Shown here piece by piece: positions 12,747 through 62,276 of a DNA stretch of 64,000 bases; positions within the stretch are counted from its first letter, which is position 1, and each line of letters opens with the position of its first letter. The DNA lies in IMG/VR virus record IMGVR_UViG_3300038760_000073, positions 12,846-76,845 of that record, one strand, 5' to 3'. The stretch is from a virus. The translations under genes were made by a program, and so were the position numbers. The notes under the pieces are model-generated. The model worked only from the letters and a program-made list of their open reading frames with translations, did not search any database and was not told the DNA's origin.

Positions 12747-14344
12747 GATTCTATATATGTCTCCATCTGTTTTTTATTAAATCTCTCAACCTTCTGAACC
12801 AACTGTTCGTTATGCTTATAAAATTTATGATTGCTCTTATCGGTTAACGCTACTTTATATGAATCTTCATGAGGTAAGTGAAATAGAAAGTATTTACTAT
12901 CTGTTGAAGTGACGCTAGTAACTGTCTTACCTAATATTTTAGCTCGTGATATAATCTCATTATCTTCATATCCCCAACCTTTAAAGTTTGGATTAAACCC
13001 GTTTATATCTTTAAATGTATTACGCTTAGCAATAAGGCAACCACCAACAGCATTTACATTACCAACTGTATATAAATCAGTCGTATAAAGATTTCTAATA
13101 TTAGATACATCTACGGTTGATTGCAAATGTTCAAACAGCTTAGGTATATTACCGTTTGCAGATCCCGTACCGGTAATCTGTTTTTTAAGTTTATATTCAG
13201 CATAAATTGCTACCCCATTATACCCTATACAAATAGAATTGTCTATATTACTAATCGTCTCTATAGATCTAGATAAACTATCAATACTAACAATACAATC
13301 TATATCTAAAAAGCAAACTATATTATTAATAGCATTCTCAAGACCTATATTATAACCTATACATTTATTATAAATAGCATCACTTTTGTGAAAAATATAC
13401 TGATCGTTACCCCGTACAATATGTTCTATAGTTTTTTCCGGCCCATCTTCTACAAATACAAATTCACAATTTGGATATATTGCCTTATAGTAGTTATAAA
13501 TAATTTTAAAATTCTTTCTACGCTCTTCTGTATCTTCTCTATAATGTACAACAAACGATATAGGCTCCGTAGGCTTGCGTATCTTTAATATATTTAAAAC
13601 TTCTGTTAAATTTAAATTCGGTACCCCTACAGGACTTACACCATGCTTCTCTAGAAAGACCTTCGCAGCTTTTTGAATATTACTCTGCCAGTCCTGCCTG
13701 GGCCTAATAGATGAGCTATGTTCTGAACATGCTTGTTCGTTTACGTAATCTAAACTGTTTGGTATATCTGCCCACCACCAGTAAGGTGTACTATAACCTG
13801 CTTTAGCTAATCTGTAAGAATGCTCCACATGTTCAAAAGCATTTACTAGCTTCTCATCATATAAACCTACATTCTCTAAGCATTCTCTAGTATAAAAAGT
13901 AACTGCCCCAACACAATGTAAATTGAGAGCTACTTTAATATCACCATAGTCAATAATTTTTCTAGGTTTAGGAGGACCTCCACTAACACCACCCTTATTT
14001 GCCGGTCCATGATAACCAAACATAAAGTGATGTATACCTGTTTTTTTATGAGCTGCTATATATGCCTTAAATAGGTTATCTGTAAATACCATATCATCCT
14101 CTACAAGAATAATATACTCACACCCATTATCTAACAAGCATTTTATTGCGAGATTTTTAGCATGACCAACTCCTTTACCACCACTGTTAATAACAATATC
14201 ATCTGAGGAACGAGTTACCGGTATATTACCATCATCTACGGTTATAATTTTATCATACCACCCCGGCTTAATTGAGTTAATGCATTTATTATAAAAGGCC
14301 GGCCTATCACATGTTATAACTGCGCACCCAACCTTCTCACTCAT
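12740..14344 (-). CDS. Two-domain GT-A glycosyltransferase (GT2 plus GT7-C-like)
   Basis: VDDG, VEDD; second domain FLDID and GFNPNFKGWGYEDNE. Confidence 0.8.
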   Translation of the reverse strand: MSEKVGCAVITCDRPAFYNKCINSIKPGWYDKIITVDDGNIPVTRSSDDIVINSGGKGVGHAKNLAIKCLLDNGCEYIILVEDDMVFTDNLFKAYIAAHKKTGIHHFMFGYHGPANKGGVSGGPPKPRKIIDYGDIKVALNLHCVGAVTFYTRECLENVGLYDEKLVNAFEHVEHSYRLAKAGYSTPYWWWADIPNSLDYVNEQACSEHSSSIRPRQDWQSNIQKAAKVFLEKHGVSPVGVPNLNLTEVLNILKIRKPTEPISFVVHYREDTEERRKNFKIIYNYYKAIYPNCEFVFVEDGPEKTIEHIVRGNDQYIFHKSDAIYNKCIGYNIGLENAINNIVCFLDIDCIVSIDSLSRSIETISNIDNSICIGYNGVAIYAEYKLKKQITGTGSANGNIPKLFEHLQSTVDVSNIRNLYTTDLYTVGNVNAVGGCLIAKRNTFKDINGFNPNFKGWGYEDNEIISRAKILGKTVTSVTSTDSKYFLFHLPHEDSYKVALTDKSNHKFYKHNEQLVQKVERFNKKQMETYIESW

Positions 14345-14385: not shown

Positions 14386-14577
14386 CTACTGCTTGTGCCT
14401 GTTTTCCATATTTGAATAATATTGCGGATCTTCAACGAGATGCTGCTTTGCTATAATTTTAGCAATCGATTTATATGGTGTATGTTCTAGCTCAACTTGT
14501 ATACCTTTAATTAACTCCTCAGGATCAAACTGTAGTGTATCATCTATAGGTTTAAAAAAATTCTTAAAAGCTCTCAT
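14386..14577 (-). CDS. Small late protein, DUF5661-like
   Basis: ELIKGIQVELEHT...IAKQHLVEDPQYY; TATAAATA 5 nt upstream. Confidence 0.65.
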   Translation of the reverse strand: MRAFKNFFKPIDDTLQFDPEELIKGIQVELEHTPYKSIAKIIAKQHLVEDPQYYSNMENRHKQ

Positions 14578-14619
14578 ATTTTTATTTATAAACGAAACAA
14601 ATAGACTATAAATATTGTT
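14578..14619. promoter_or_regulatory. Two divergent T4-type late promoters (TATAAATA)
   Basis: TATAAATA-N5-ATG on each strand. Confidence 0.75.
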
Positions 14620-19442: not shown

Positions 19443-20093
19443 TTATCCCCAAGTAGTGCCTTTAAACCAATCTGACTTACCTTGTGTAACGTTATTACCT
19501 ACTGGGGCAGCTGCCGCGGCCGGGGCAGGATTACGGTTAGTTACTGATGACTCCGGTGATACGTTCGGTGCTTTTTCTGCAGATATATTATCTTGCACCC
19601 CCTCTGATCGCTGATCAGTATACTTATCCCAATCGATTAATTTACTAGTATTTTTTTCATATGTGGCTGAATTATCATCATGCTCAAATACTTCAACTTT
19701 ATCAACCCAACACCTACCAGACGTCTCCTTATCTATTATAGGATCAACTAATTTATAAATCCATTCAGCGGTTTTTTCGATTCCAACATTATCCATAACT
19801 CTAAGATCAATAATTCCACGAGATGATAATTCTTCAAATATATCCATCTCAGGATCGTCGCTAGCGACACATGTTGTATGATCAAATTGCTTCTGCAATA
19901 TCTTTCTAATTTCTTTAAATCCACCAAAATCATAAGACCAGGTCTTATCATCAAGATTGCTGCAGCCTATAGTAAATTCTGCTACTAAATTATACCCATG
20001 TAATTTGCAGCAGTGGCTGTGAGTAGCTCGCCATTGCCTGAAAGCACATGACCCTAGTGTTATACGTTTCTTTGATGTATGCTTATGACTCAT
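19443..20093 (-). CDS. queD: 6-carboxy-5,6,7,8-tetrahydropterin synthase
   Basis: SCAFRQWRA.HSHC..LHGY, DFGG, FDHT, E..AEW, VEVFEH..NSA.Y. Confidence 0.88.
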   Translation of the reverse strand: MSHKHTSKKRITLGSCAFRQWRATHSHCCKLHGYNLVAEFTIGCSNLDDKTWSYDFGGFKEIRKILQKQFDHTTCVASDDPEMDIFEELSSRGIIDLRVMDNVGIEKTAEWIYKLVDPIIDKETSGRCWVDKVEVFEHDDNSATYEKNTSKLIDWDKYTDQRSEGVQDNISAEKAPNVSPESSVTNRNPAPAAAAAPVGNNVTQGKSDWFKGTTWG

Positions 20094-20269
20094 AATATTA
20101 TTATAATATCTATATATATCTAAATCAACTATAAATTTACCTAATCACAGATACGCTAGACGGTCAGTTAATTAGGTTTTTCTTACTACCTATAGTCCAT
20201 TTATTAAGTCTAGATCCAATTGCAACTGTCGCGAGGGTACATTAATTTAGCCAATTTTCAAAAATATCA

Positions 20270-20297
20270 TTGACTTATTAAAAATATACATTATCAT
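20270..20297 (+). promoter_or_regulatory. Promoter TTGACT-N16-TATCAT, 6 nt before folE ATG
   Basis: Read directly from the sequence. Confidence 0.65.
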
Positions 20298-20303
20298 TAT
20301 ATA

Positions 20304-20960
20304 ATGAGTGATCAAACTGCAATATTACCAACAGCTAGTAGTTCTCATCCAAGAACATATGAGGAAAAACAAATTATAATTAAAAATGCAGCTGCAGCTT
20401 ACGAAAAATATTTAGATGCATTAGGTTTTGATTGGAGGAACGATCCTAACTCTGATAATACACCTATGCGTGTTGCAAAGGCATTTGTTAATGATATTGC
20501 TGCGGGGTGTTATAGTGATCCTCCGGAGGTGACTGTATTTCCAAGTGATGGGTATGATGGTATTGTAGCTCAGACAGGTATACCTATTGTGAGCCTATGC
20601 TCACATCATCATATGTCATTCACTGGTGTAGCTCATGTAGCTTATATTCCCTCTATAGATGGTAAGGTCGTTGGCCTATCTAAGCTTAATAGAATTGTTG
20701 AGTATTATGCAAGACGACCACAAGTTCAGGAACTCTTAACCATGCAAGTATCAAAAGCAATTGATGACATATGTGAAAATAATAGAGGAACTGCCCTAGT
20801 CATTAAAGCTCAACATACATGTGCATGTAACAGGGGTATTAAGCATCAAGGATGTGCTATGGTAACTAGTAAGTTGACTGGTGACTTTATGGATGATAAT
20901 AAAACTAGGACAGAATTTTATAAGTTTGTAGATATGTGGGAAGCTAGCGCAAATCGATAA
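20304..20960 (+). CDS. folE: GTP cyclohydrolase I
   Basis: TPMRVAK, SLCSHH, VGLSKLNR, RPQVQE, HTCACNRG. Confidence 0.95.
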   Translation: MSDQTAILPTASSSHPRTYEEKQIIIKNAAAAYEKYLDALGFDWRNDPNSDNTPMRVAKAFVNDIAAGCYSDPPEVTVFPSDGYDGIVAQTGIPIVSLCSHHHMSFTGVAHVAYIPSIDGKVVGLSKLNRIVEYYARRPQVQELLTMQVSKAIDDICENNRGTALVIKAQHTCACNRGIKHQGCAMVTSKLTGDFMDDNKTRTEFYKFVDMWEASANR

Positions 20961-21015: not shown

Positions 21016-21549
21016 ATGAATATATTTGTAACTGATAATGACCCGATTCAAGCTGCTAAGAACTTATGTGATCAGCACGTACGTAGTAAAATGCAAATTG
21101 AGGGAGCTATTATGTTGGCTCATGCATTTTCACAGGAAATTCTTAATGATCCATCAACACCTAGAACATCCACCGGGAATCCGAGAAAAAGGGGTAAAGG
21201 TTATTATAAGCATCAATGCTCTATATGGGCTAGAGAGTCTATAGATAACTTTAAATGGCTAGCTGAGCATACTTTAGAAATGTTTACTGAGCGGATGTAT
21301 AGGTGGCCTGATTCAAAGGAGCATTACACTAAAACATTTATTGAATGGTGTATAGATAATATTGATAAGACATTAATTAAAGATATACCGCTAACATCCT
21401 ATGCTGTCGCTATTAATGATGAATGTGAGTGTCGCAAGACCGTTAAAGCATTTAACAGCTTATCAGTTATTGATCAATATAGACATTATATTAAACTAGA
21501 TAAAAAATTCGCTACATGGACTAAGCGAGAAGCGCCTAGCTGGTTTTAG
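21016..21549 (+). CDS. Pyrimidine-dimer glycosylase/DenV-related protein
   Basis: MNIF.TD.DP..AA..LCD.HV..KM.IE.A.ML, H..S.WAR.S..N..WL, YR.Y, W.KR..P.W. Confidence 0.7.
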   Translation: MNIFVTDNDPIQAAKNLCDQHVRSKMQIEGAIMLAHAFSQEILNDPSTPRTSTGNPRKRGKGYYKHQCSIWARESIDNFKWLAEHTLEMFTERMYRWPDSKEHYTKTFIEWCIDNIDKTLIKDIPLTSYAVAINDECECRKTVKAFNSLSVIDQYRHYIKLDKKFATWTKREAPSWF

Positions 21550-21986
21550 GCATCAACCTCTAAATTATCACCAGCAATATTTTCTGCACTAACATCAATT
21601 AGTGCATCTAATTCCCGTTCAATAAACTGTTTTCCAACCAATATCTTATAAATATTGGTAGATCTATTGCCAATAGAAAATGGCACATTTGAGAATAATT
21701 TATCACCAACTTTGACGTCAAACTCAACAACAGGTCGATGTTCAGTATTACCAGCACCAACATTAATTGTTACCTCACCGGTTTTATCTTTCAATAGTGT
21801 CTTACCGTTAACAGTTCTAAAAAACACCTTAGAGCCCTGCTCTTGCAAGTCCTCTCCATGGAGAACATTGTAAGCACCGTTACCAGAATCAAGCTTTGCT
21901 GGTACTATACCAATACCCTCTATATCAAAGAACTCAATTAAGCCTAAGATTACCCTTTCTTCAAAATATTGTTTAAACTTTACCAT
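21546..21986 (-). CDS. Retropepsin-like (RimK-associated type) putative protease
   Basis: PAKLDSGN, HRPVV, FSIGNRS...ILVGKQFI. Confidence 0.75.
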   Translation of the reverse strand: MVKFKQYFEERVILGLIEFFDIEGIGIVPAKLDSGNGAYNVLHGEDLQEQGSKVFFRTVNGKTLLKDKTGEVTINVGAGNTEHRPVVEFDVKVGDKLFSNVPFSIGNRSTNIYKILVGKQFIERELDALIDVSAENIAGDNLEVDA

Positions 21987-21997
21987 GGTAATTACTG

Positions 21998-22387
21998 TTA
22001 ATAATTTTCTGAATCTTCACTATGGTTAGGTACATCCTTATTTTCATCGTAATCTAACCAATGATAAACGGATGATAAATAATCAGATGCTTTAGTAATT
22101 TTTGCTGCCGTCCACCCCTCTAAACTATTTGCTGATTTGAGCATATTTTCTAACTCACTAGCATACTCTATAGTTTTTTTAAGTTCGGATAATGCCATAT
22201 GAATTTCAGAAGAATCATGCTCCTCATGAGAACATTTTTTATCACCACTATACTCTTGATCTGAATGTTGTTTATTATTATCTGTATTAATACCTACGAC
22301 AATATCATCTTTAACCGGTATACCGACTTGAGTCATATATGCTTCTGAAAGTAAATCTTTATCCTTACCCCAATTGTTATGCTGCAT
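21998..22387 (-). CDS. Late hypothetical protein
   Basis: TAAATA-N5-ATG; MA.SEL...LEGW...KITKA.DYL motif seen in T4-like phages. Confidence 0.65.
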   Translation of the reverse strand: MQHNNWGKDKDLLSEAYMTQVGIPVKDDIVVGINTDNNKQHSDQEYSGDKKCSHEEHDSSEIHMALSELKKTIEYASELENMLKSANSLEGWTAAKITKASDYLSSVYHWLDYDENKDVPNHSEDSENY

Positions 22388-22481
22388 AACAATATTTATG
22401 CTAAATTATAATACTCTCATACCTTTTAGCACTTTAGGTATTATTAATTAAGAATAACACTCTACCACCCTACCACTTCTA

Positions 22482-22874
22482 TCACCAAGATTTGCAAGCC
22501 CAGTAACCTGCTGTCAACTTACTCTTTTTTTGATCACACTTATGTCTAGCTCTAAATGATTTACGAGCTTTAGGATTACTCTTGCGTATTTTCATCGTCT
22601 TTTCACCCCGCTTTTTTGCAGATGTACCACCGTGACCAAAATTGACTTTCTTTACATTCCCAGTCTTTGGATCTTTAACATATACCTTAAACTTCTTAAC
22701 ATCTCCCCTGGTAGGCTTATTTAAGGTAACCTTGCGCCCCTGATACTCAGCATCCTCTTCCGGTAATCCACGACCAGGGAAATCTAACGACTCTGCCATA
22801 TTTTGAATACCTATTTCAGAAATATCATCTGTTGTTGTTTCTAGTTGCTCAAAATATTCTTTAAAGGTTTTCAT
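22482..22874 (-). CDS. Conserved basic T4-like phage protein with capsid-targeting-like N-terminus
   Basis: MKTFKEYFE; AEYQGRKVTLNKP...ARKSFRARHKC...YWACKSW. Confidence 0.7.
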   Translation of the reverse strand: MKTFKEYFEQLETTTDDISEIGIQNMAESLDFPGRGLPEEDAEYQGRKVTLNKPTRGDVKKFKVYVKDPKTGNVKKVNFGHGGTSAKKRGEKTMKIRKSNPKARKSFRARHKCDQKKSKLTAGYWACKSW

Positions 22875-22933
22875 ATGTATTTTAACTATTGCTTAAATTG
22901 TTTTATAGTAACTACTATAAACTAAGAATATGG

Positions 22934-23242
22934 TCAAGCACCCTCGCCATCCTCGGCACCGGTATTAAACATACTATTACCTTGACCGGTCGTACCTGCC
23001 CCTAATTTACTAAGTACATCTGCTAATTGTGCTATTAATTCTGCAGCACGTGCTTGTAAATCACCTGATTGATCTAGATCATCACAGCAACATTCATCAC
23101 AATTACCACATGTGCAGCTTTGAGGCTCTTGCGAACAACCACCAGCTATACCGGTATCGATCTCAGTTACAGCTAATTCTGTAGGAGCAATGCTCTGCAT
23201 ATATGTTTCAGCAATTAAATCCATAGTGGGGTTGTTCTTCAT
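22934..23242 (-). CDS. Late hypothetical protein with Cys-rich patch
   Basis: TAAATA-N5-ATG at 23242; CTCGNCDECCC. Confidence 0.6.
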   Translation of the reverse strand: MKNNPTMDLIAETYMQSIAPTELAVTEIDTGIAGGCSQEPQSCTCGNCDECCCDDLDQSGDLQARAAELIAQLADVLSKLGAGTTGQGNSMFNTGAEDGEGA

Positions 23243-23246
23243 AATG

Positions 23247-23795
23247 TTATTTATTGATAATAATCGATTTAACTGCTTCTTTATCTGTCTCAGACATGTC
23301 ATCCGGTGTAAAATAGCTAATAGCCTCGTCAATATCACTATTAATGAGATGTCTAGTCTTAGTTCCGGATATACCTTCTGATTGAATTGGTATTTTTGCG
23401 ATATTTACTAGTGGATATTTTTCAATATTTTTATTAAAACCATCATATCGCTTAATATCTTCATCTTTAGCACCAGCACCAACAATAATACCGGTATGTT
23501 TATTATTATATGCAAATGCATATACAGATCTAACAGGGCTAACAGCTGATATATGAGTCTCGATAGGCTTTCCTAGGTATTTTGAGTATATTTCCCATAT
23601 AGCCTTTGATTGTTCGGCTGTAATACCATCTCTTTCCTTCTTACCAATAAAAATAATGCCTTTATCTGCACTATCTAAAATATATTTGAAGGCTTTAAAG
23701 TGTCCCTTAGTTGGTGGTTTAAAGCCACCGGGGAATAATGCAATATTCTCTGCTGGTCCCTGAACTTGTTCAAAATACTGTTTAAAATTTTTCAT
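23247..23795 (-). CDS. HxGH-superfamily (cytidylyltransferase-like) nucleotidyltransferase
   Basis: PGGFKPPTKGH, ISGTKTR. Confidence 0.8.
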   Translation of the reverse strand: MKNFKQYFEQVQGPAENIALFPGGFKPPTKGHFKAFKYILDSADKGIIFIGKKERDGITAEQSKAIWEIYSKYLGKPIETHISAVSPVRSVYAFAYNNKHTGIIVGAGAKDEDIKRYDGFNKNIEKYPLVNIAKIPIQSEGISGTKTRHLINSDIDEAISYFTPDDMSETDKEAVKSIIINK

Positions 23796-25015
23796 TACTT
23801 AGTTATTGGTGTACTGGTTTGGCCTCCGGAGAAGTTTGCTCTACTAAACTCGAGTCTATCTACTAGCTTAACAGCGTTACCATCTCTACTGATGCTAACA
23901 TATCCTTCAGGCGCAGTAACCTTAAGCGTCCCATCACCAGCATCTAGAAAATGCTTTGTTTTATATACTGCATTATTATATTTGTTAATAAATATCTGTT
24001 TTGCTTGTGAGATTAACTTACTAACCTTAAACACATTTACTATATCTTGTTCATTACTCTCTATCTCTGAGAGTTTTTTCTTAAAACTCTCTTTAACTCG
24101 CTCTTTACCTTTAATACTCTTTCGTTTATCTATTTCCTTAGACATTCTATTTTTAATCCATAGAACAAAATTTGCATATGATTCATCAGCATTTTCTAAA
24201 AATTTACCACCTTTAATCTCAGAATTTGTATATATATTGAGTAAATCTAGGGGAAGATCTTTATATTTAACTTTAATTGAGTCAGCAGTCTTAACATAAT
24301 CCTTTACCTGCTTGACTTCATCAGTTGTTAATGTAACAACCCCTGTATCATCTTTAAAAAATGCATCATCTACCCACACACCAGGTACCTTGTTAAGTTT
24401 ATTAACTTTAGCTCCAAAATTAGCTCCACTTTCTAGATCATTGTATTCAGTATGAAAAATAATGCCAAATACTGAACTACTAATAGATTTACCTAGATCT
24501 GAATCCGCTTCCACTGCATATTTTATAGTATTTGGCTTAAATGTATAGTGCATCACCCCATCAATATTTTCTTTTGCTAATGTTGATGAATCAAACATAA
24601 AATCACCCTGTAGTATGTTTTTAATACCAAGTTTGGGTAGGTATTTGAGAGCCTTCTTAAGTTTATCTGCTAGACCAGGTGCATGTCCATGATTTAACTC
24701 AACATCATTATCAGTATAGTTAATTTTGGGGTCTCTATTAAAAATAGATTTGGTACCTACAAAAAATTTACCTGTATCTGGGTGCCTCCCTACAAACATT
24801 GCGGGCGCGCCATCCCACTTAACTGTGGTACCAACCTTTCGTTTACTTTTGCCTTGTAAGTGTGATAGTAGGTCTGTTATAAAGCCTCTAGCTGTTGTGT
24901 ATCCTTGCTCTCCCTTAGTTAGAACAAGTTCTTCCAGGTGGGTTAAGTGTGTGTTAGCTTTAGTTGCCTCCTCAATGAGCTTGTAAGCTTCAAAATATTG
25001 TTTATATGTTTTCAT
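23795..25015 (-). CDS. DUF6267-like protein with ligase-like KxDG motif
   Basis: NTHLTHLEE, KWDGAPA, GKFFVGTKS.FN, QGDFMF, PEGYV, KLVDRLEFS. Confidence 0.75.
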   Translation of the reverse strand: MKTYKQYFEAYKLIEEATKANTHLTHLEELVLTKGEQGYTTARGFITDLLSHLQGKSKRKVGTTVKWDGAPAMFVGRHPDTGKFFVGTKSIFNRDPKINYTDNDVELNHGHAPGLADKLKKALKYLPKLGIKNILQGDFMFDSSTLAKENIDGVMHYTFKPNTIKYAVEADSDLGKSISSSVFGIIFHTEYNDLESGANFGAKVNKLNKVPGVWVDDAFFKDDTGVVTLTTDEVKQVKDYVKTADSIKVKYKDLPLDLLNIYTNSEIKGGKFLENADESYANFVLWIKNRMSKEIDKRKSIKGKERVKESFKKKLSEIESNEQDIVNVFKVSKLISQAKQIFINKYNNAVYKTKHFLDAGDGTLKVTAPEGYVSISRDGNAVKLVDRLEFSRANFSGGQTSTPITK

Positions 25016-26190
25016 TAGTTGATTAGTTTCATTCCACCCACTTCTTTTGCAGCACCTGAGGCTGTTGTGCTACTACCAGGAAAGTACCCATAAACACCGT
25101 CACCGTCTATTCTAAATTTAATTAACTCTTGATCAATAGCTTGATTAATAATTTCTTGACTCTTTACATTGATGTAATTAGCTTTACTCCATGTACCCTC
25201 AGCAAACCTAGCAGGTCCTGTTCCGGATGCTTTCATACCATGCTGATATACTCCTAACCATATATCAAACTTATGGCCCCCTTCACCCATATTTTCATCA
25301 TCTGGTGAACCGTTTCCATAAGCGTGCAGTAAACGACCACACATATGCTGTATTCGTACATTAATACCCGGGTATTTATTAACGATTTCTTCTAAGACTG
25401 TCCTTGTTAGACCTTTCTTACAAAAATCACTGCTCCAAGTACTTGTATTAATACCATCGAGAGTATAACTATCATCCTCTGCTTCACCTGCTTTCAACCC
25501 ACCATAATTCGCTATTTGTTCAATTTTTACTCTATCATCAGCAAATCCCCTACCACGCGCACTTATAATCCTACCTAGACCTGTTTTTAATTCTATACTA
25601 GTATTACCTATCTGTAAATCACCAACGCTACCCTTTTTAGCTTCAGTTAAAAGAGCTAAAGCTAATTCTCCATTACCGACACTTACGTTACCTTCTTTAA
25701 AATCTCGCGCCCAAAGCATGTTATAAAACTTTAAATGATCTTCTACCGGCAAAAACATCTCAAGCTGAGGCTTACATATACTATATAATTCCATACTACC
25801 TACCTTAGTAGTAAATTCAGGTAACAATACATTAAGGTTGTCTTTTTTATCAACCAGCTCTCTTAATCCGTCGTAATTAGCATTATTAAACTCTTGAAAT
25901 AATAGTTTTAAGAACCGATCTTCTGTTTCAAAACCACTCTTTTCTGCTAGTTTTTGAATAATTTTATAATCCTCTTTAAGTATAAAGGATCCTTCAGCCT
26001 TACCTTGTAAATAATCAGCTACTCTAAATGCTGTCTTATCACTTATACCTTCAAGTGTTTGAGGTTTACCCTCATCATACTCAAAAGTAATCTTTGCTTC
26101 CCCATATACGCTTAAATGTCCACGTGGAGGTACTTCTTTACCTCTCACCTGATCATATAAACTTGCTAAAGATCTTCTACTATAATTCAT
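25015..26190 (-). CDS. Putative PD-(D/E)xK nuclease-fold protein
   Basis: GNGELALALL...GDLQIGNTSIELK. Confidence 0.55.
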   Translation of the reverse strand: MNYSRRSLASLYDQVRGKEVPPRGHLSVYGEAKITFEYDEGKPQTLEGISDKTAFRVADYLQGKAEGSFILKEDYKIIQKLAEKSGFETEDRFLKLLFQEFNNANYDGLRELVDKKDNLNVLLPEFTTKVGSMELYSICKPQLEMFLPVEDHLKFYNMLWARDFKEGNVSVGNGELALALLTEAKKGSVGDLQIGNTSIELKTGLGRIISARGRGFADDRVKIEQIANYGGLKAGEAEDDSYTLDGINTSTWSSDFCKKGLTRTVLEEIVNKYPGINVRIQHMCGRLLHAYGNGSPDDENMGEGGHKFDIWLGVYQHGMKASGTGPARFAEGTWSKANYINVKSQEIINQAIDQELIKFRIDGDGVYGYFPGSSTTASGAAKEVGGMKLIN

Positions 26191-26522
26191 GATCCAATAT
26201 CTGTAATTTTATCTAGTTCTCTTTGTGTGTCAACAGGACTGATCTCTAAAAAGTTCTCAATAGTCTCAATAACTTCTTTTGGTTTATCATTTAATATTAA
26301 TGACTGCAGCTCATTTACAATTTTACTCTCACTATCATCTGGTATATGTAAGAATGCCTTGACAGCTAAATTAATTAAGAATTTTTCACCCTCTGATGTT
26401 AATGGTATAGGTGTCTCAGGGACAGGCTGTTCACTAATATCCGTAGCATCAGGCATGTCTGGAGCTCCATCCTGTTCATTAATCTGTTTTAAATACTGTG
26501 TAATTAACTTGAGTGTTTTCAT
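26187..26522 (-). CDS. Hypothetical late protein
   Basis: Translationally coupled in the operon. Confidence 0.65.
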   Translation of the reverse strand: MKTLKLITQYLKQINEQDGAPDMPDATDISEQPVPETPIPLTSEGEKFLINLAVKAFLHIPDDSESKIVNELQSLILNDKPKEVIETIENFLEISPVDTQRELDKITDIGS

Positions 26523-26860
26523 ATTTCAATCTTCTTTGCGGCTTTAACGAGTTTATCTGCTAACTGTCTTTTAGCACTCTGAACTTTCCTTGCTGTTGAG
26601 CTCATCACCTGCTTACCTAGTTTTTGATCGGGTATAGACAAAACAGCTGCAGCTGTTTCTACTGTTTTGTCTATATCAGATTCTTGCTCTTCTTCTGGAT
26701 GAACAGAGTTTTTAAGCTTACTAAATATATCCCACGCAAATTCAGTACCACTTACATCAACGCTATCGATAACCTCGCCGGTTGCTGTTTGTAATACAAT
26801 ACTATAATTACCCCGTTCTGGATTATTTTCCTCAACTAATTCGAGAAATTTACTACTCAT
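26519..26860 (-). CDS. Hypothetical late protein
   Basis: TAAATA-N6-ATG; MSSKFLELVEE. Confidence 0.65.
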   Translation of the reverse strand: MSSKFLELVEENNPERGNYSIVLQTATGEVIDSVDVSGTEFAWDIFSKLKNSVHPEEEQESDIDKTVETAAAVLSIPDQKLGKQVMSSTARKVQSAKRQLADKLVKAAKKIEI

Positions 26861-26869
26861 GTATAATAT

Positions 26870-27340
26870 TTATGGTAGTAGAGATCGTTTTATGTTTATA
26901 TTGCTTTTAAATTTTTTCTCTAACGCCTGTAACTTGTATCTACGAAGTAAATTAAAAAATCTCTGAAAGTTGGCAGTTGAAATATCCGTATCGTTAAAAG
27001 CAATATAGTCTCGCTCTGTCAAAAAATTCTCAAACTCATACACATCATATGTAATATTTGATGGTAAAGTATTAAAAATCCGCTTTACCAATCTTGACTC
27101 AATACTATCTGTGGTCTTGTAGTAAAACCACTTTTTAGAACCTACCTTAGAGCATACATTTAACAATTGGTTAATAATAAAATGTAATCCTAACTTATTT
27201 TTATCCGCTCTAGATAAGGTCAATTCATTCTCAGTTATATATAAAATATATTCTTTAAAAGAATTATTTAAATAGTGGTTAAGATTTATAAACGTAATAT
27301 CCCTCTTTTGATCCTTAAAGTTGCTTACAGATAAGCTCAT
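26870..27340 (-). CDS. Hypothetical protein
   Basis: ORF that fills the gap between genes. Confidence 0.6.
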   Translation of the reverse strand: MSLSVSNFKDQKRDITFINLNHYLNNSFKEYILYITENELTLSRADKNKLGLHFIINQLLNVCSKVGSKKWFYYKTTDSIESRLVKRIFNTLPSNITYDVYEFENFLTERDYIAFNDTDISTANFQRFFNLLRRYKLQALEKKFKSNINIKRSLLP

Positions 27341-27352
27341 ATTATATACTGA

Positions 27353-27778
27353 TTATATAGATTTTCCTTTACCTATACGACAGTTTATTATACCATTATA
27401 GTACTCTTCCTTTAAGAGTACTTCCTCAGCGAATTGTATTTTCGCTTCTTCGTAACTTAATTGCCATTTTGAATCACAAAATTTGATAATTTCAAACTTA
27501 AAGTTTTGTTTTCCCAACTCAATAATATCTATATTAAGCTTATTTGATGACGAAGTATACTCACGCCAATCTGTCTCTTTAATTGTATGCCTTTTATTTT
27601 TCTTTCCTTTGAGAGGAGGTCGTTTAAGTGTAGTTATGCATTGTTTCTTACCAATATATTTCTTACCAGACTGTAAGTTTGTTATTTTATATATAAATCC
27701 GAACGGTACTATACTATCTTCACATATAATATCTGATTCCCAATGACCAAAATCAATTTGATTGCTCTTTATCGTCAT
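27353..27778 (-). CDS. GIY-YIG (Seg-like) nuclease
   Basis: FGFIYKITN...KKYIGKK, FKFEII, YYNGII. Confidence 0.8.
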   Translation of the reverse strand: MTIKSNQIDFGHWESDIICEDSIVPFGFIYKITNLQSGKKYIGKKQCITTLKRPPLKGKKNKRHTIKETDWREYTSSSNKLNIDIIELGKQNFKFEIIKFCDSKWQLSYEEAKIQFAEEVLLKEEYYNGIINCRIGKGKSI

Positions 27779-61838: not shown

Positions 61839-62276
61839 TTATACGTGGCGGAACGCTGGATTGTCAGTCTGTGATATATAACCTCTAAAAGATTCAGTTA
61901 ACCCAGCTAGTTCTGTTGCGACACGTGTAATTTTACGTTGTTCAGATGCCTTCATGCGATCGAAAATTGTGTCTGGCTCAGATGCCGCAAGTGTAGCTTG
62001 AATAGAGTTCTGCTCTCCATTAAGTCTCTGTAAAAAACTATCCATTTCAGATACCCAACCTTCAAGCTGGGTTCTCATCTCGGCAGCATGCTGGGCATGC
62101 GCTCTAGATGCTTCTACGGCTGCATTATCACCACCAGTTTCAGGCATATCTGTATCTATATTAAAATCCTCCGAGTTTGTCTCATCATCCAAGGTATCTA
62201 CAAATGCATCCTTTTCTAGATCATCTAAACTAGCTTCATCTAGAAGTTTGAAGAACCTTTTTTCGAACTTATTCAT
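61839..62276 (-). CDS. Late acidic hypothetical protein
   Basis: TAAATA-N5-ATG; MNKFEKRFFKLLDEA. Confidence 0.65.
   Translation of the reverse strand: MNKFEKRFFKLLDEASLDDLEKDAFVDTLDDETNSEDFNIDTDMPETGGDNAAVEASRAHAQHAAEMRTQLEGWVSEMDSFLQRLNGEQNSIQATLAASEPDTIFDRMKASEQRKITRVATELAGLTESFRGYISQTDNPAFRHV

Follow-up and report, generated by a model that had tools for sequence, protein, structure and literature searches.

The closest known counterparts of the proteins considered here are the internal head proteins of bacteriophage T4, whose capsid-targeting sequence (CTS) reads MKTYQEFIAE (PMC8442874). Residues 4 and 7 of this leader govern targeting and residues 8 and 10 its processing, with the protease gp21 cutting after L/I-x-E (PMC9026906). 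In marine cyanophages, members of a cytidylyltransferase/NMNAT-like family have been detected by mass spectrometry in CsCl-purified virions of S-SZBM1 (PMC9146016), S-CREM2 (PMC10665884) and S-SCSM1 (PMC9602691); in these three papers we saw no connection drawn between virion presence and a targeting sequence, and a link between the CTS and cyanophage proteins was not found in the literature searched. Here we describe an operon in a 64,000-nucleotide stretch of DNA from an uncultured, T4-like ocean phage (the window; positions 12,846 to 76,845 of IMG/VR record IMGVR_UViG_3300038760_000073) in which four unrelated proteins, three of them predicted enzymes, share a CTS-like N-terminus.

A shared N-terminus on four operon proteins

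The operon runs along the minus strand and, in the order of transcription, has the following features, with functional names given as predictions and the scoring matrix described below.

26867..26874, minus strand: late-promoter-like motif CATAAATA, 6-7 nt before p113, the first operon gene
26519..26860, minus strand: p113, acidic, 113 aa; N-terminus MSSKFLELVEE, a possible relaxed form of the tag
26187..26522, minus strand: p111, acidic, 111 aa, overlapping p113 by 4 nt; without tag (matrix score -7.2)
25015..26190, minus strand: p391, PD-(D/E)xK nuclease-like; without the MK.FK.YFE tag
23795..25015, minus strand: p406, DUF6267, RNA-ligase-like covalent nucleotidyltransferase; tag at 24986-25015
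23247..23795, minus strand: p182, HxGH nucleotidyltransferase, NMNAT/PPAT-like; tag at 23766-23795
22934..23242, minus strand: p102, small, acidic and Cys-rich, a paralogue of p129; start set at an internal ATG
22482..22874, minus strand: p130, small and basic, pI 9.9, phrog_7595; tag at 22845-22874
22393..22400, minus strand: second late-promoter-like motif CATAAATA, 6 nt before p129
21998..22387, minus strand: p129, acidic; without tag
21546..21986, minus strand: p146, retropepsin-like aspartic protease, RimB / 'Zn_protease' PF05618-like, with a DSG motif; tag at 21957-21986

The four tagged proteins are mutually unrelated and yet share a leader of nine to ten residues: MVKFKQYFEE on p146 (start at 21986), MKTFKEYFEQ on p130 (22874), MKNFKQYFEQ on p182 (23795) and MKTYKQYFEA on p406 (25015), all on the minus strand, with M-K-x-F-K-[QE]-Y-F-E-x as the consensus of this phage lineage. 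A six-frame search with the pattern [FY]K[QE][YF]F[EQ] gave four matches only, in the window as in the entire 76.8-kb contig, always at residues 4-9 counted from the start methionine. A position matrix trained on 118 non-redundant leaders from other contigs gave the four strict tags 22-35 bits, apart from the runner-up N-termini (5.4 and 2.8) and from the best of 304 internal methionine sites (-2.8). A first-pass annotation of this DNA had proposed that unrelated operon proteins begin alike, and genome-wide scoring bears this out, since every N-terminus it quoted is present in its place and the strict motif is exclusive to four gene starts. Its four looser matches fared less well: MKTLKLITQY is rejected by the matrix (-7.2), MRAFKNFF is marginal (2.8), and neither MNKFEKRFF nor MSSKFLELVEE is among the 22 best-scoring N-termini. 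The last of these, on p113, fits only the relaxed pattern M.KFL.L[VI]EE, by way of its orthologues; p113 itself has no Pfam or PHROG family match. The DNA 5' of the tagged ATGs is not conserved, so that the tag is not a DNA repeat, and a repeat or mobile cassette boundary was rejected on this ground.

Predicted activities of the operon enzymes

p406 matches Pfam PF19782 (E 8.5e-96), a family in which K66, D68, G69, E370, G371 and K383 are invariant across 87 sequences and in which KxDG (motif I, with the catalytic lysine), EGxV (motif IV) and the motif V lysine are all present. Searches of the p406, p391 and p182 sequences against the PDB returned nothing useful, and a Foldseek search of the PDB with the p406 AF2 model (pLDDT 91) gave no significant match; the ligase fold surfaced only in an exhaustive aligner, VIA-align, whose best matches to p406 are RNA ligases (5cot, Z 8.8; 5d1o, 7.8; 6n0t, 7.5; T4 Rnl1, 7.3). 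The sole chain at Z >= 8, 5cot (NgrRnl), aligns over 186 aa with an rmsd of 3.9, and about ten other RNA/DNA ligases score Z 6.2-7.8. As modelled, DUF6267 has an RNA-ligase-like nucleotidyltransferase fold and is a predicted covalent nucleotidyltransferase. In ocean metagenomes the family falls into more than 2,000 clusters when grouped at 50% identity; we found no mention of it in the literature searched.

For p182, the motifs PPTKGH (G31 and H32 invariant) and ISGTKTR (G144 and R148 nearly invariant) supply both the (H/T)xGH after strand 1 and the ISxTxxR by which HxGH nucleotidyltransferases are recognised. There is no Pfam match at E <= 0.01 and only a weak PHROG match to a cytidyltransferase, while p182 is 37% identical to a Flavobacterium phage 'NMNAT' and aligns with the cyanophage cytidylyltransferase family in hhalign (Prob 94.9%, E 4.5e-8). 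p146 is matched by PDB 9g58 (E 9.4e-6) and by PF05618 at E 1.6e-4, although the 22.1 bits of the latter lie below the family cut-off of 27, and its sequence predicts a retropepsin-like protease. The first-pass calls of a protease, a nucleotidyltransferase and a ligase-like enzyme were thus broadly right, as retropepsin-like, HxGH and DUF6267 proteins respectively. The fourth tagged protein, p130, is 55% identical to an HTVC008M protein, and its homologous region occurs as a C-terminal fusion on the Melnitz nucleotidyltransferase.

The untagged p391 has a nearly invariant D191...E200-x-K202 and an AF2 model with a pLDDT of 82, falling below 50 in residues 1-30. Its best fold matches, the type II endonucleases HhaI and MspI, are weak (Z 4.0 and 3.8), and Foldseek found no significant match to the model in the PDB. 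The protein combines a conserved, disordered N-terminal module of 30-36 aa, also found on unrelated bodies, with a hypervariable body, which is why a word-index search recovered 10 clusters only.

Distribution of the tag and its genomic setting

Scanned for the tag coding pattern, IMG/VR yielded 79 distinct ORFs, with the pattern almost always at the true start, and at least 15 unrelated protein families are represented. In the fetched loci the tag stands at the ORF start in 150 of 1937 ORFs, against 19 internal occurrences. Positions 4 and 7 are aromatic in all 118 non-redundant leaders and in the four window proteins (F/Y at 4, Y/F at 7), and these are the mapped targeting positions of the T4 CTS, so the likeness to T4 internal-protein N-termini that had been noticed at first sight holds where it matters for targeting. 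Among ten further tag-bearing cargo proteins searched against Pfam, eight had no family and two gave weak nucleotidyltransferase hints. In near-complete relatives the tag-bearing genes are gathered in one locus only. The tag-bearing contigs are mostly short fragments, which bears on how strictly the tag belongs to T4-like phages; in one of them (G004, four tag-bearing genes, 67% complete) no matches to gp21 or gp23 were found.

Orthologues with as little as 35-50% overall identity still carry the tag, which is better conserved than the linker after it. Synonymous codons are used in the tag as they are in the gene bodies, and the tag accepts K/R and F/Y substitutions. Tags within a genome are not homogenised (4.10 vs 3.99 identities, p about 0.06), each protein family retaining its own flavour, and the identity comparison gave no sign of recent gene conversion or concerted evolution. 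Taken together, free synonymous variation, differing upstream DNA and the lack of homogenisation place selection on the peptide, and we read these sequence comparisons as protein-level selection of the tag.

The contig encodes the T4-like head module, with gp20, gp21 (PF03420, E 1e-33), a gp22-like ORF of 292 aa and gp23 (PF07068, E 6.5e-71), and where maturation cleavage would be expected, gp23 of this clade has WC[IV]EE, a sequence similar to the FEE of the tag. The motif NATAAATA precedes p113 (26860) by 6-7 nt and also precedes p129 (22387). The same motif is found upstream of gp20, gp21, gp22 and further head genes of the contig, at a distance of 5-16 nt. In relatives it is conserved both before the p113 orthologue (at 5 nt in L006, L019, L045, L047 and L064) and before the p129 orthologue. 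The earlier statement that the operon genes lie under TAAATA late motifs therefore stands for p113 and p129 but not for each gene.

Homologues of the tagged enzymes give further views of the leader. Of 103 diverse DUF6267 representatives, 25 open with a leader of the form ^M..[FY]..[FY][LIVF].E that abuts the domain, against an expectation of about 0.01, and DUF6267 homologues that have no leader begin exactly after the position of the leader Glu. In the p406 model the tag is a low-confidence helix, linked to the domain by flexible residues 11-18 (pLDDT < 50). Among p146 orthologues a Glu at position 10 is kept in all, directly before the domain. The cyanophage cytidylyltransferase/NMNAT-like proteins carry leaders of the MKSFLQFLKE-, MKKFSAFLTE- or MRFRQFIIE-type, and a search of the complete S-SCSM1 genome with the strict pattern marked one ORF only, that of the virion-detected nucleotidyltransferase, a single case being too few alone for statistics. 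Neighbours of this gene that have no tag were also detected in S-SCSM1 virions, and the authors caution that abundant proteins may co-purify (PMC9602691); the tag is thus not the sole route, and virion association could belong to the locus.

Proposed packaging, alternative readings and known systems

We consider that a lineage-specific version of the T4 CTS loads the tagged proteins into the head, and put the probability of this reading at roughly 0.7. The match between tag and CTS, the head module, the late motifs, the virion-detected relatives and the leaderless homologues together make packaging, as predicted from the genomes, well supported, and by analogy with T4 the tagged enzymes are probably packed in the particle and enter the host together with the DNA. 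Late transcription of the operon would be driven by the NATAAATA promoters, and during prohead assembly the tag would bind its bearers (DUF6267, the nucleotidyltransferase, the protease and the small basic protein) to the gp22 scaffolding core. A gp21-type prohead protease probably cuts the tag off behind Glu9 or Glu10, leaving mature proteins that would remain in the head and exit at infection along with the DNA. That folded enzymes of 20-46 kDa can pass through the tail is an assumption modelled on T4 Alt. In the host they might act in nucleic-acid end repair or in nucleotide/NAD-type chemistry, which is our guess.

Cleavage is less certain than targeting, since in the window the tags end in YFE[EQA], where position 8 is F, position 9 is Glu and position 10 is Glu in p146 only (1/4), and since the P3 position of the candidate cut holds F or Y, against the L/I that T4 gp21 requires. 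The leaders of diverse DUF6267 proteins and of cyanophage nucleotidyltransferases do read [LI]-x-E; the HTVC008M nucleotidyltransferase has Lys at position 10. For the tagged proteins we infer cleavage, injection and the takeover or anti-defence role suggested in the first-pass annotation.

The clustering of tag-bearing genes in a single locus of near-complete relatives would also suit a docking peptide for some other shared partner in the infected cell, such as an enzyme complex on the acidic p111/p113, a chaperone, or a site on the membrane or nucleoid; beside the tagged genes the operon has untagged acidic proteins as candidate partners, and the fusion of DUF6267 with the nucleotidyltransferase in some phages suggests joint work. 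We nevertheless judge docking unlikely, because the tag agrees with the T4 CTS at the mapped positions, the late-promoter motifs are common to the operon and the head genes, and tagged nucleotidyltransferases of the same broad family occur in purified virions (PMC9146016, PMC10665884, PMC9602691). Moreover, the start of leaderless homologues coincides with the predicted cleavage point, a better fit to a propeptide that is removed than to a docking helix that stays. The operon protease is itself tagged and the tag ends in a Glu-rich stretch, as might be expected of an N-terminal degron, or of a site for that protease, that timed enzyme activity, but this is quite improbable: the protease is missing from many tag-bearing loci of other phages, virion detection of tagged homologues would be left unexplained, and to our knowledge no degron of such a form is known.

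Features of the nucleic acid itself invite still another explanation, as the tag codons are AT-rich, Shine-Dalgarno sequences of the operon genes are weak or absent and cassette content between DUF6267 and the protease differs among relatives, so that the tag might act in the mRNA, as a translation-initiation or RegA-type operator, or as a recombination sequence for cassette shuffling. Such a role is very improbable, given that the tag varies at synonymous sites no less freely than gene bodies do and admits conservative amino-acid exchanges, that upstream DNA is unrelated and that tag flavours are family-specific with gene conversion not seen; an mRNA or translation signal was rejected on the codon evidence. 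That the tag is a functionless relic, left by ancient duplication of a first exon-like segment, would suit the adjacency of the genes and is scarcely credible for a peptide kept, above its following linker, at 35-50% overall identity and on at least 15 unrelated families.

Beyond head loading as such, we tentatively propose, at slightly less than even odds, that in ocean T4-like phages (Kyanoviridae and kin) a portable address tag loads an open-ended and fast-changing set of enzymes, including DUF6267, NMNAT-like proteins, proteases and many of unknown fold, into the capsid, and that the DUF6267-nucleotidyltransferase pair would serve as a pre-made kit for repair or counter-defence in the first minute of infection. 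Were this so, the injected proteome of uncultured marine phages would be predictable from genomes alone, with the N-terminal motif as a predictor of packaged, probably injected, proteins. The recurrence of NMNAT-like enzymes in purified cyanophage particles would gain a mechanistic reason, and DUF6267 could be placed, as likely, within the head. Cargo that arrives with the DNA acts ahead of phage gene expression and would therefore be a prime candidate against host defences in the most abundant marine phage-host systems. As with the CTS in T4, foreign proteins might also be loaded into the heads of marine phages by means of the tag.

The kind of system is already known from the CTS-tagged internal proteins of T4, of which the tagged proteins here would be further members. 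The CTS of T4 IPI, IPII and IPIII (PMC8442874, PMC9026906, PMC3012670) is likewise a ten-residue N-terminal tag on otherwise unrelated proteins, with an M-K-T start, aromatic residues at 4 and 7 and a Glu at the end, and the phage described here also has the gp21 protease and a gp22 core. The consensus differs: MK.FK.YFE has F in place of the I at position 8, and its Glu is at 9. Whereas the T4 proteins are small and basic and are made during head assembly, the cargo here, known from its genes, comprises enzymes of 15-46 kDa and one small basic protein, their synthesis at the same stage being predicted from promoter-like motifs. Like the hypervariable internal-protein loci of T-even phages, which share 'only a conserved CTS' (PMC3012670), the tag-bearing genes form one locus of changing content in which the leader is kept; in contrast to those loci, it belongs to phages with a marine host range, and its core of DUF6267, nucleotidyltransferase and protease consists of conserved enzymes, not restriction inhibitors. 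T4 Alt, an ADP-ribosyltransferase, is a precedent for a large enzyme that is packaged in the head, trimmed by gp21 and injected (PMC9026906), and is not homologous to any protein here.

The NMNAT-like or cytidylyltransferase proteins of cyanomyophage virions (S-SCSM1, S-SZBM1, S-CREM2 and S-CBWM1; PMC9602691, PMC9146016, PMC10665884) belong to the same broad family as p182, carry a CTS-like leader and are encoded in the same neighbourhood, after gp41/UvsX and beside DUF6267, but are longer, at 360-410 aa, and include a long linker as well as an extension at the C-terminus. DUF6267, finally, has no significant sequence match to the solved ATP-dependent RNA ligases (Naegleria NgrRnl, 5cot; archaeal Rnl3, 5d1o; Trl1, 6n0t; T4 Rnl1, 9do4; T4 Rnl2, 2hvq), and in its predicted structure has their fold (Z 6.2-8.8 over 180-205 residues), with the KxDG lysine motif and the EG..V and K motifs likewise in place, and differs from them by a long helical insert at residues 231-347.

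A shared N-terminal tag within one operon

The 76.8-kb contig is a fragment (~36% complete) of an uncultured marine T4-like myovirus, whose closest isolates are Pelagibacter phage HTVC008M, Methylophilales phage Melnitz and cyanomyophages, all Kyanoviridae. A T4-type head module lies on the same contig just upstream of the window, with portal, prohead protease gp21 (PF03420, E 1e-33), gp22-like scaffold and capsid protein gp23 (PF07068, E 6.5e-71). The region studied here is flanked on one side by QueD and GTP cyclohydrolase I and on the other by UvsY, UvsW, the late sigma factor gp55 and gp46/47. It holds nine tightly packed genes, named by protein length, in the order p113, p111, p391, p406, p182, a 102-aa ORF, p130, p129 and p146 (26860 down to 21546, minus strand), with overlaps of 1-4 nt among the first five. 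Four of the nine begin with M-[KV]-x-[FY]-K-[QE]-Y-F-E:

25015, minus strand: tagged start of p406 (DUF6267)
23795, minus strand: tagged start of p182 (nucleotidyltransferase)
22874, minus strand: tagged start of p130 (small basic protein)
21986, minus strand: tagged start of p146 (retropepsin-like protease)

The common tag that the first-pass annotation had described on these proteins was borne out, its core pattern having no further match in any of the contig's six frames. When scored against a matrix built from leaders of other contigs, the four N-termini reached 22-35 bits, every other N-terminus at most 5.4 and all 304 internal Met sites at most -2.8. Of the looser matches proposed alongside, this matrix rejects the p111 start, places the ORF at 62276 outside the top 22 N-termini and leaves the 63-aa ORF at 14577 (MRAFKNFF) marginal at 2.8 bits; the p113 start fits a relaxed form at most, which is clearer in its orthologues. 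The operon had also been placed under late motifs, and this holds ahead of p113 and p129: the late-promoter motif NATAAATA, found 5-16 nt ahead of head-gene starts, precedes both, at sites conserved in five relatives.

Several further features were observed in the window. A late motif also lies 6 nt ahead of the 63-aa ORF (14386-14577, minus strand). Contig-wide, NATAAATA lies only 5-16 nt ahead of start codons (for example at 14589, 14608, 18052, 19446, 22399, 26873 and 51947) and Shine-Dalgarno sequences are weak or absent, a combination suggesting that this phage may make late mRNAs with little or no 5' leader. Two small acidic proteins (22934-23242 and 21998-22387, both minus strand), each encoded after tag-bearing genes, look paralogous (LIAETYMQS and LLSEAYMTQ near their starts), the former being Cys-rich (CTCGNCDECCC). 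The operon is adjoined by genes for a QueD-like protein and GTP cyclohydrolase I, of the 7-deazaguanine precursor pathway (19443-20960); after them comes a gene for a 'DNA binding protein' of phrog_624 (21016-21549). Just upstream of the operon, and found in some relatives only, is a GIY-YIG-type homing-endonuclease-like gene (27353-27778, minus strand; phrog_7363) that also matches a PHROG labelled 'NAD synthetase'.

Selection on the tag

The DNA upstream of the four tagged ATGs is unrelated. In IMG/VR relatives the tag is kept in DUF6267, nucleotidyltransferase and protease orthologues down to ~50% overall identity, and additional cassette genes at the same locus are also tagged. Scanning IMG/VR for the tag coding pattern yielded 79 different ORFs. 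The match sits at a true ORF start in nearly all of them, and together they span 15 or more unrelated families, the majority lacking a Pfam match; in the fetched loci the pattern stood at the start of 150 of 1937 ORFs and was internal in just 19. Among near-complete relatives, it is this one ~3-kb locus alone that carries the strict pattern.

The choice of K, F, Y, E and Q codons in the tag is that of gene bodies, and K/R and F/Y exchanges occur within it, which points to selection on the peptide and not on the RNA. Each protein family has its own flavour of tag, and tags from one genome are no more similar than tags from different genomes, arguing for vertical inheritance under constraint over recent copying.

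Likeness to the T4 capsid targeting sequence

The T4 capsid targeting signal is MKTYQEFIAE (PMC8442874); suppressor analysis assigned residues 4 and 7 to targeting and 8 and 10 to processing, with gp21 cleavage directly following L/I-x-E (PMC9026906). In the tag the consensus is M1 K2 [TNKS]3 F4 K5 [EQL]6 Y7 F8 E9 [EQD]10, with aromatic residues at positions 4 and 7 in all 118 of 118 leaders. Judged on sequence, the likeness becomes near-perfect in the wider families: among 103 diverse DUF6267 representatives (35-47% identity), 25 carry M-x-x-F-x-x-[FY]-[LI]-x-E directly before the conserved domain start, against a chance expectation of ~0.01, and leaderless homologues start exactly one residue past the leader Glu. 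In the AF2 model of p406 (pLDDT 91), the tag forms a helix of its own at low confidence, and a flexible stretch separates it from the domain.

Cyanophage cytidylyltransferase/NMNAT-like proteins, which are homologous to p182 (hhalign 94.9%) and encoded in the same neighbourhood adjoining DUF6267, have the leaders MKKFSAFLTE, MKSFSQFLTE, MKSFLQFLKE and MRFRQFIIE. In S-SCSM1 the leader end FLKE/A mirrors GSFLAE/A in gp23 of the same phage, which corresponds to the T4 gp23 cleavage site. T4 gp23, like cyanophage gp23, has GSFL.E at its maturation site. In gp23 of the window's clade (genome 6253-7782, minus strand; relatives' loci L177-L181), WC[IV]EE, which resembles the FEE of the tag, stands at that position before a Gly-rich stretch, so the maturation site has diverged. 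The window tags have an aromatic residue and not L/I three residues before the candidate Glu, and position 10 is Glu in p146 alone; whether the cut falls behind Glu9 or Glu10 can therefore only be guessed.

Published virion proteomes, obtained by LC-MS/MS on CsCl-purified particles, include proteins relevant here. The cytidylyltransferase and its neighbour were detected in S-SZBM1 (PMC9146016; gene identities checked here), ORF154 with ORFs 155 and 156 in S-CREM2 (PMC10665884), and ORFs 89-93, among them NMNAT-like ORF91, in S-SCSM1 (PMC9602691). The excerpted text of the S-SCSM1 report calls NMNAT-like proteins frequent in cyanophage virions and proposes no targeting signal (PMC9602691); in the literature searched, no paper placed a capsid targeting sequence on cyanophage proteins. 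ORF91 is the one ORF with the strict aromatic pattern in the complete S-SCSM1 genome, although untagged neighbours are also virion-associated. The S-SZBM1 DUF6267 protein lacks the leader and is absent from that virion's protein list, consistent with tag-directed packaging.

Proposed cargo proteins and overall reading

For p406 (DUF6267, E 8.5e-96) the top structural matches are all RNA ligases, with Z 8.8 for NgrRnl, 7.8 for archaeal Rnl, 7.5 for tRNA ligase, 7.3 for T4 Rnl1 and 6.2 for T4 Rnl2; with the invariant K66-x-D68-G69, E370-G371 and K383, they place it in the ligase superfamily, its predicted and probable substrate being RNA or nicked nucleic acid. p182 bears TKGH and ISGTKTR, motifs of the HxGH nucleotidyltransferase type, and its best isolate match is a Flavobacterium phage 'NMNAT'. 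Other marine phages fuse the two in both orders, DUF6267 first (representative proteins P0115 and P0120; L037:8001-9896) or nucleotidyltransferase first and leaderless (P0126, P0129, P0130, P0131), an argument for joint action of the two enzymes. With its DSG motif, p146 is retropepsin-like, and p130, small and basic (pI 9.9), is reminiscent of T4 internal proteins.

Untagged p391 (25015-26190, minus strand) looks like a PD-(D/E)xK nuclease. Its first 31-36 residues, predicted disordered, are 61-67% identical across the proteins compared (L055:6574-7986, L011:1773-3185, L101:4256-5404), the remaining 350-430 residues being without BLAST similarity; this module may be a second signal, for docking or as a propeptide, carried by a nuclease-like protein whose body is hypervariable.

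The first-pass annotation read the tagged enzymes as carrying T4-like capsid-targeting N-termini and as probably injected. We put the probability that the tag directs packaging into the capsid at about 0.7; its proteolytic removal is slightly favoured, and injection with an early role is a tentative proposal, under which the cargo would serve first-minute nucleic-acid repair or nucleotide-cofactor chemistry.

A different phage, the 138.7-kb contig IMGVR_UViG_3300047553_000365 (L088, L117, L142), also has four tags, on three MKDFKTYFE paralogues and a fourth gene; no gp21 or gp23 match was found within the 67% of the genome covered, and use of the tag may extend beyond classical T4-like heads. 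On this reading the principle is the known one of the T4 capsid targeting sequence, including the T-even pattern in which one leader is shared by proteins that vary at a single locus (PMC3012670), here extended to T4-like phages of the ocean, whose consensus is shifted and whose cargo consists mainly of enzymes.
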